Of a stretch of DNA of 64,000 nucleotides, positions 26,253-26,377 are shown one piece after another. Made by a program: the position numbers and the translations under genes. Under the pieces are notes generated by a model. It was not told where the DNA came from and ran no database searches. It was given only the letters and a program-made list of their open reading frames with translations. How positions within the stretch are numbered: position 1 is the first letter of the stretch; each line of letters starts with the position of its first letter. Origin of the DNA: Escherichia coli (GTDB taxonomy: Bacteria > Pseudomonadota > Gammaproteobacteria > Enterobacterales > Enterobacteriaceae); NCBI RefSeq assembly GCF_051903065.1, contig NZ_CP178438.1; one strand, 5' to 3'.

Positions 26253-26300
26253 ATGAAACACACACCGTTTTTCTTCGCATTCTTTTTTACCTTCCCCTGA
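26253..26300 (+). CDS. pheL: pheA leader peptide (Phe-rich, 15 aa)
   Basis: [15 protein letters not shown], seven Phe codons, directly upstream of pheA. Confidence 0.9.
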   Translation: [15 protein letters not shown]

Positions 26301-26347
26301 ATGGGAGGCGTTTCGTCGTGTGAAACAGAATGCGAAGACGAACAATA

Positions 26348-26377
26348 AGGCCTCCCAAATCGGGGGGCCTTTTTTAT
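26348..26377 (+). terminator. pheA attenuator terminator
   Basis: Hairpin AGGCCTCCC...GGGGGGCCT followed by TTTTTTAT between pheL and pheA. Confidence 0.8.

Follow-up and report, generated by a model that had tools for sequence, protein, structure and literature searches.

The region upstream of pheA in this E. coli genome raises two linked questions, namely whether the pheL leader peptide and its attenuator are intact, as the original prediction had it, and whether the fourth leader codon departs from that of K-12, as had been suspected. Both were addressed in a window of 64,000 nt, the whole stretch of DNA that was analysed, to which positions refer unless stated otherwise. The evidence set out below indicates that the pheL-pheA leader is almost certainly the canonical attenuator of the E. 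coli pheA operon, through which a ribosome translating the leader controls transcription. The attenuator is an already known one, is present here in its commonest E. coli form and is complete.

Direct reading and translation place the pheL leader ORF on the plus strand at 26253-26300, from an ATG at 26253 to a TGA at 26298-26300, with the sequence ATG AAA CAC ACA CCG TTT TTC TTC GCA TTC TTT TTT ACC TTC CCC TGA. Seven of its 15 codons specify Phe (codons 6-8, 10-12 and 14, at 26268-26276, 26280-26288 and 26292-26294), exactly the composition predicted for a leader at this position, and the ORF terminates in UUC_CCC_UGA (TTC CCC TGA, 26292-26300). An identical pheL sequence carries the RefSeq label "pheA operon leader peptide PheL". 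A Shine-Dalgarno sequence, AAGGA (26241-26245, plus strand), was read 7 nt 5' of the ATG, and the same motif occupies the equivalent place 5' of the GTG- or TTG-start pheL leaders of other genera. Directly downstream of pheL and on the same strand, the ORF list gives a full-length pheA (26399-27559, plus strand; 386 aa) for chorismate mutase/prephenate dehydratase, whose product is identical to that of K-12 at 385 of 386 residues; the sole difference is Asn95 here versus His95 in K-12 (codon at 26681-26683). The gene order yfiH-rluD-bamD-raiA-pheL-pheA-tyrA-aroF matches that of both K-12 MG1655 and strain SK1144. Opposite-strand ORFs across the leader (26235-26345 and 26287-26358) are short, start with TTG and have no support, and were judged to be chance occurrences.

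On its 5' side the pheL unit is bounded by the intrinsic terminator of raiA, which a terminator scan located at 26173-26197 (plus strand; stem at 26173-26192, then a T-run). This terminator is identical to that of K-12, in whose annotation it forms the 3' terminus of the sRNA RaiZ: raiZ stops at the corresponding position there. It directly abuts TTGACA (26198-26203, plus strand; direct reading), a perfect sigma-70 -35 hexamer that presumably belongs to the pheL-pheA promoter, with a presumed transcription start further downstream. A candidate -10 element, TACTGT (26222-26227), follows after an 18-nt spacer and matches TATAAT at three of six positions; the stretch holding the -35 hexamer and this candidate is identical to K-12. 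The consensus promoter scan of 25700-27700 called no sigma-70 site above its thresholds, because the candidate -10 is weak.

The terminator hairpin and U-tract that had been described 3' of the leader were recovered by Rfam, by the terminator scan and by folding. This 3:4 intrinsic terminator, the attenuator proper (26347-26377, plus strand), has a 10-bp stem that pairs 26347-26356 with 26362-26371 around an AAAUC loop. It reads AAGGCCTCCC-AAATC-GGGGGGCCTT at 26347-26371, with seven G-C pairs among the ten, and runs into TTTTTTATT, the U-tract at 26370-26375 being followed by AUU. From the -35 hexamer through the full-length pheA every element is unbroken, which bears out the claim of an intact attenuator. 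Additionally, the MFE and centroid folds and the Rfam consensus structure define a 1:2 "pause/protector" structure (26267-26343, plus strand), in which the Phe-codon region at 26267-26290 pairs with segment 2 at 26320-26343, the helix being capped by a small hairpin of CCUUCC (26291-26296) with GGGAGG (26303-26308). The MFE fold of the free leader RNA agrees with the Rfam consensus structure. When a ribosome mask is imposed, MFE folding yields a 2:3 antiterminator (26293-26367, plus strand), whose core joins GGGAGGC (26303-26309) to GCCUCCC (26350-26356) and whose extension joins 26293-26300 to 26360-26367. The antiterminator and the terminator are mutually exclusive, and the folding of alternative structures, which had been suggested as a check on the prediction, does predict both.

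Membership of a known RNA family is equally clear. The Rfam family RF01859 (Phe_leader) matches 26252-26377 with 132.2 bits (gathering score 55; E = 1.4e-24), and the match is full-length, spanning model positions 1-125 of 125 without truncation. No family other than Phe_leader was found by the Rfam search of 24000-30000 at gathering thresholds, and in 19900-64000 the only further Rfam matches are to tmRNA and RyfD. The MFE of the 126-nt leader RNA, -51.7 kcal/mol, lies far below the mean of 200 dinucleotide-preserving shuffles (-28.3 +/- 3.5; z = -6.76). A 271-nt leader region is found in 5425 of 5426 complete E. coli genomes, in many of them with 100% identity, and E. coli genome annotation describes it as "Phe leader region / pheL / pheA".

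The mechanism proposed for this leader follows from these elements. Transcription would start downstream of TTGACA, and a ribosome would translate the 15-codon pheL. With plentiful Phe-tRNA(Phe) the ribosome would reach the UGA and the leader RNA would keep or regain its 1:2 pairing; the 3:4 hairpin (26347-26371) could then form, and RNA polymerase would terminate in the U-tract before pheA. With charged tRNA(Phe) scarce, the ribosome would instead stall in the Phe run and cover segment 1, segment 2 (GGGAGGC...) would pair with segment 3 (GCCUCCC...), and this 2:3 pairing would block the terminator and let transcription proceed into pheA. The K-12 leader has been described in the same terms, with a 1:2 structure for pausing, a 2:3 antiterminator when ribosomes are held up on the seven Phe codons, a 3:4 attenuator otherwise, and Phe/tRNA(Phe)-dependent read-through into pheA (PMC3082878). 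In addition, a NusA-enhanced pause has been reported at the pheL hairpin (PMC9291695). By analogy, both the Phe/tRNA(Phe)-dependent read-through of pheA and the 1:2 transcriptional pause may be expected here, and they are carried over from the K-12 literature.

Equilibrium folding with a 30-nt ribosome footprint (A site -15 to +14) shows how far the predicted structures follow this scheme. With no ribosome, or with the ribosome at the stop codon, the terminator has a probability of 1.0. When Phe codon 6, 7, 8 or 10 is in the A site, the antiterminator becomes the predicted MFE structure, with pair probabilities of 0.87-0.91 as against 0.09-0.13 for the terminator. In contrast, a footprint placed later in the Phe run, on codon 11, 12 or 14, leaves the terminator favoured. 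The predicted fold switch is thus a reproduction of the model of PMC3082878, but only for the earlier Phe codons. We infer that the late-codon result probably stems from the equilibrium approximation and the choice of footprint, given that kinetically segment 3 precedes segment 4. It was not counted against the attenuation model, being dependent on the footprint and blind to co-transcriptional kinetics.

The conservation of these structures was assessed in 97 distinct, aligned Enterobacterales leaders. In the terminated fold 96.2% of 3676 cells hold standard pairs, versus 42-59% in slid controls; taken separately, the 1:2 structure is paired in 95.0-99.7% of cells and the 3:4 terminator in 96.7%. 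Compensatory changes occur in both, AU being exchanged with UA at columns 28/81 of the 1:2 helix (14 sequences), AU with GC at columns 99/122 of the terminator (41 sequences) and CG with UA at columns 106/115 of the terminator (14 sequences). The antiterminator is paired in 87.8% of cells, versus 43-54% in slid controls. A covariation test of the antiterminator in the same 97 leaders gave no signal above shuffles, which speaks neither for nor against it because the GGGAGGC/GCCUCCC core is invariant. This invariance is explained by the position of the region in several alternative helices, such that any change would require multiple compensations (PMC3082878).

We now turn to the fourth codon. 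Over 291 aligned columns, running from the stop codon of raiA to nucleotide 32 of pheA, the window and K-12 MG1655 share 290 bases, and the sole difference is at 26263, C here versus T in K-12. Codon 4 accordingly reads ACA (Thr) instead of ATA (Ile), so the departure from K-12 that had been suspected at this position is real. The window allele is nonetheless the majority E. coli form, and many strains, O157:H7 among them, have a leader identical to the one here. Counts were made with 30-mers centred on the SNP in 5426 complete E. coli genomes; Megablast requires an exact 28-mer, therefore only genomes with the same allele match. ACA (Thr4) was found in 3993 genomes and ATA (Ile4) in 1383, with 50 of the 5426 left unassigned, so that Thr4 and Ile4 divide the species at about 74% to 25%. 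These counts supersede those obtained with 60-mers (3560 Thr4 and 1383 Ile4), with which further SNPs kept 479 genomes from being assigned. Thr4 is also present in the Escherichia albertii outgroup (MKHTP..., ACT) and in Citrobacter amalonaticus (MKHTP..., ACC). Given the outgroup state, Thr4 is probably ancestral and the Ile4 of K-12 probably derived. The usual E. coli PheL is the Thr4 form and the K-12 reference, with Ile4, represents the minority, a small annotation point; the allele difference is relevant when K-12 measurements of pheL frameshifting or attenuation are extrapolated to other strains.

Across the 97 leaders, codons 2-5 are the only hypervariable stretch (MKLVP, MKQTP, MKHLP, MSRKP, MINKV), whereas elsewhere the leader shows almost no nucleotide variation (mean column identity 84%). 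Position 26263 belongs neither to the Phe codons nor to the final three codons. It lies 4 nt 5' of the first paired base (26267), is unpaired in the MFE structure and precedes every helix. Both alleles were folded under nine conditions. In eight of these the MFE energy and structure are identical, and in the ninth the alleles differ by 0.5 kcal/mol, a difference confined to a 5' side helix, with the terminator probability unchanged. Terminator and antiterminator probabilities agree between the alleles within 0.03 under all nine conditions. The Thr4/Ile4 polymorphism is most likely neutral.

Other readings of the locus have to be weighed against that of a conserved attenuator with a neutral polymorphism. 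Short ORFs are common generally, and nothing beyond this recommends the view that pheL is a chance ORF beside an ordinary terminator, without leader function; given the E value of the match to a curated family, the z-score of the fold, and the conservation of the peptide end, the stop codon and the same RNA helices upstream of pheA in dozens of genera, the probability of this view is practically negligible. It is also extremely improbable that the codon-4 change impairs attenuation and that the leader is not truly intact. A one-residue difference between the peptide and the reference is all that would suggest it, but the change falls outside the Phe codons and all helices, the two alleles share one MFE structure and energy, the Rfam match is full-length and far above threshold, and Thr4 is the allele of most E. 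coli and is common to E. albertii.

The idea that the polymorphism is functional has somewhat more substance. AUA is rare in E. coli and is decoded by a minor tRNA(Ile); ACA is an ordinary codon. Replacing AUA by ACA, or the reverse, might alter early ribosome speed, the synchronisation of ribosome and polymerase, and basal pheA read-through, or else act through the residue adjacent to Pro5 on termination or +1 frameshifting at CCC_UGA. If so, basal pheA expression would be set differently in the two lineages, and the alleles do divide the species at appreciable frequencies. Furthermore, codon 4 adjoins Pro5, the "-10" proline, and substitution of this residue cuts +1 frameshifting in K-12 pheL by half (PMC3082878). 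However, constraint on the leader is weakest at codons 2-5 in the 97 Enterobacterales sequences, and the terminator and antiterminator probabilities of the alleles are equal within the narrow range given above. With regard to frameshifting, the last three codons before CCC_UGA suffice for its stimulation, constructs that retain no other wild-type leader codons than these three frameshift at the wild-type level, and the same study presents frameshifting as incidental and without effect on pheA expression (PMC3082878). Moreover, the 15% +1 frameshifting of K-12, a member of the UUC_CCC_UGA class, depends on the weak RF2 variant of that strain (PMC5373646). Taken together, a functional role for the polymorphism is unlikely, with a slim chance at best, and neutrality remains the preferred reading.

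The gene for RF2, prfB, lies outside the window. In the +1 frame, 51 codons run without a stop here, as in K-12. The TGA of that frame lies 54-56 nt into pheA both in the window (26299-26454) and in MG1655 (L001 3646-3801), a minor discrepancy with the literature, and the implied 66-aa frameshift product fits the FLAG-tagged band of about 9 kDa in PMC5373646.

Among described systems the closest is the K-12 pheL/pheA attenuator itself (b2598), with which the window shares the locus, gene order, Phe codons, UUC_CCC_UGA, the 1:2, 2:3 and 3:4 segments and the U-tract; in pheL the two are set apart by the single base at 26263. The leader likewise fits the UUC_CCC_UGA class of enterobacterial pheL (Gurvich et al. 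2011, PMC3082878), having in common with it the 15 codons, the ending and a highly conserved nucleotide sequence, and no class-defining difference was seen in the pheL sequence of the window. The comparison can be widened to other attenuated operons. The leaders trpL, hisL, leuL, thrL, ilvL and pheM (pheST), the last being the second E. coli leader of Phe codons, combine, as pheL does, a short leader ORF rich in the regulatory codon with mutually exclusive pause, antiterminator and terminator hairpins. They differ in their regulatory amino acids or operons and have no sequence homology to pheL. Pausing has been reported at pheL, leuL and thrL (PMC9291695).

The diversity of pheL was surveyed by a motif scan with back-translated FFAFFFTFP in one genome per species, which gave 120 loci, nearly all in Enterobacterales. 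Lacking any start or stop context, the matches in Prevotella (L023) and in Streptomyces (L065) were excluded as chance. The pheL leaders of Kluyvera, Pseudocitrobacter, Klebsiella, Raoultella, Chimaeribacter, an Enterobacter strain and some Yersinia have no ATG (L022, L029, L043, L066, L074, L083, L085, L089, L097, L098, L102, L105, L110 and L113). Judging from their sequences, GTG or TTG appears to serve as the start codon instead, or CTG in Kluyvera ascorbata (L098), preceded by the conserved AAGGA. Exceptions to the UUC_CCC_UGA ending were found in Trabulsiella odontotermitis (L111), where pheL reads through into a 23-codon ORF (…TFPQTGRRFVV), and in two Enterobacter-like leaders (L006 and L017), which end in …TFPN with a TAG stop.

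Beyond the attenuator, the window follows K-12 positions 2711083-2755957 colinearly as far as 44500, at 96.8-99.7% identity. Identity is lower at the left end, with 96.8% over nadB-yfiC-srmB (1-3177) versus 98.1-99.7% rightward, and this drop may mark the boundary of a recombination tract. K-12 is longer by about 150 nt between srmB and yfiE (window 3153-3177), by about 85 nt next to gltW in the rrnG spacer (18183-18204) and by about 110 nt between rpsP and ffh (34962-34977); these three length differences resemble minor polymorphisms of intergenic repeat elements or spacers. The RyfD sRNA (Rfam RF02768, 125 bits) lies on the minus strand at 22808-22946, between clpB and yfiH as in K-12. Colinearity stops at about 44500, right after ssrA (tmRNA, 44136-44498), where the late region of a P2-family prophage replaces the CP4-57 element of K-12 and extends past the window end (64000). 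No integrase was seen in the portion of the prophage that lies inside the window. In a 96%-identical relative, the prophage region comprises a BRCT-domain gene, ogr, gpD and the tape measure, sheath and tube genes, together with a tail-fibre segment with a recombinase and the baseplate, lysis, capsid and terminase genes.
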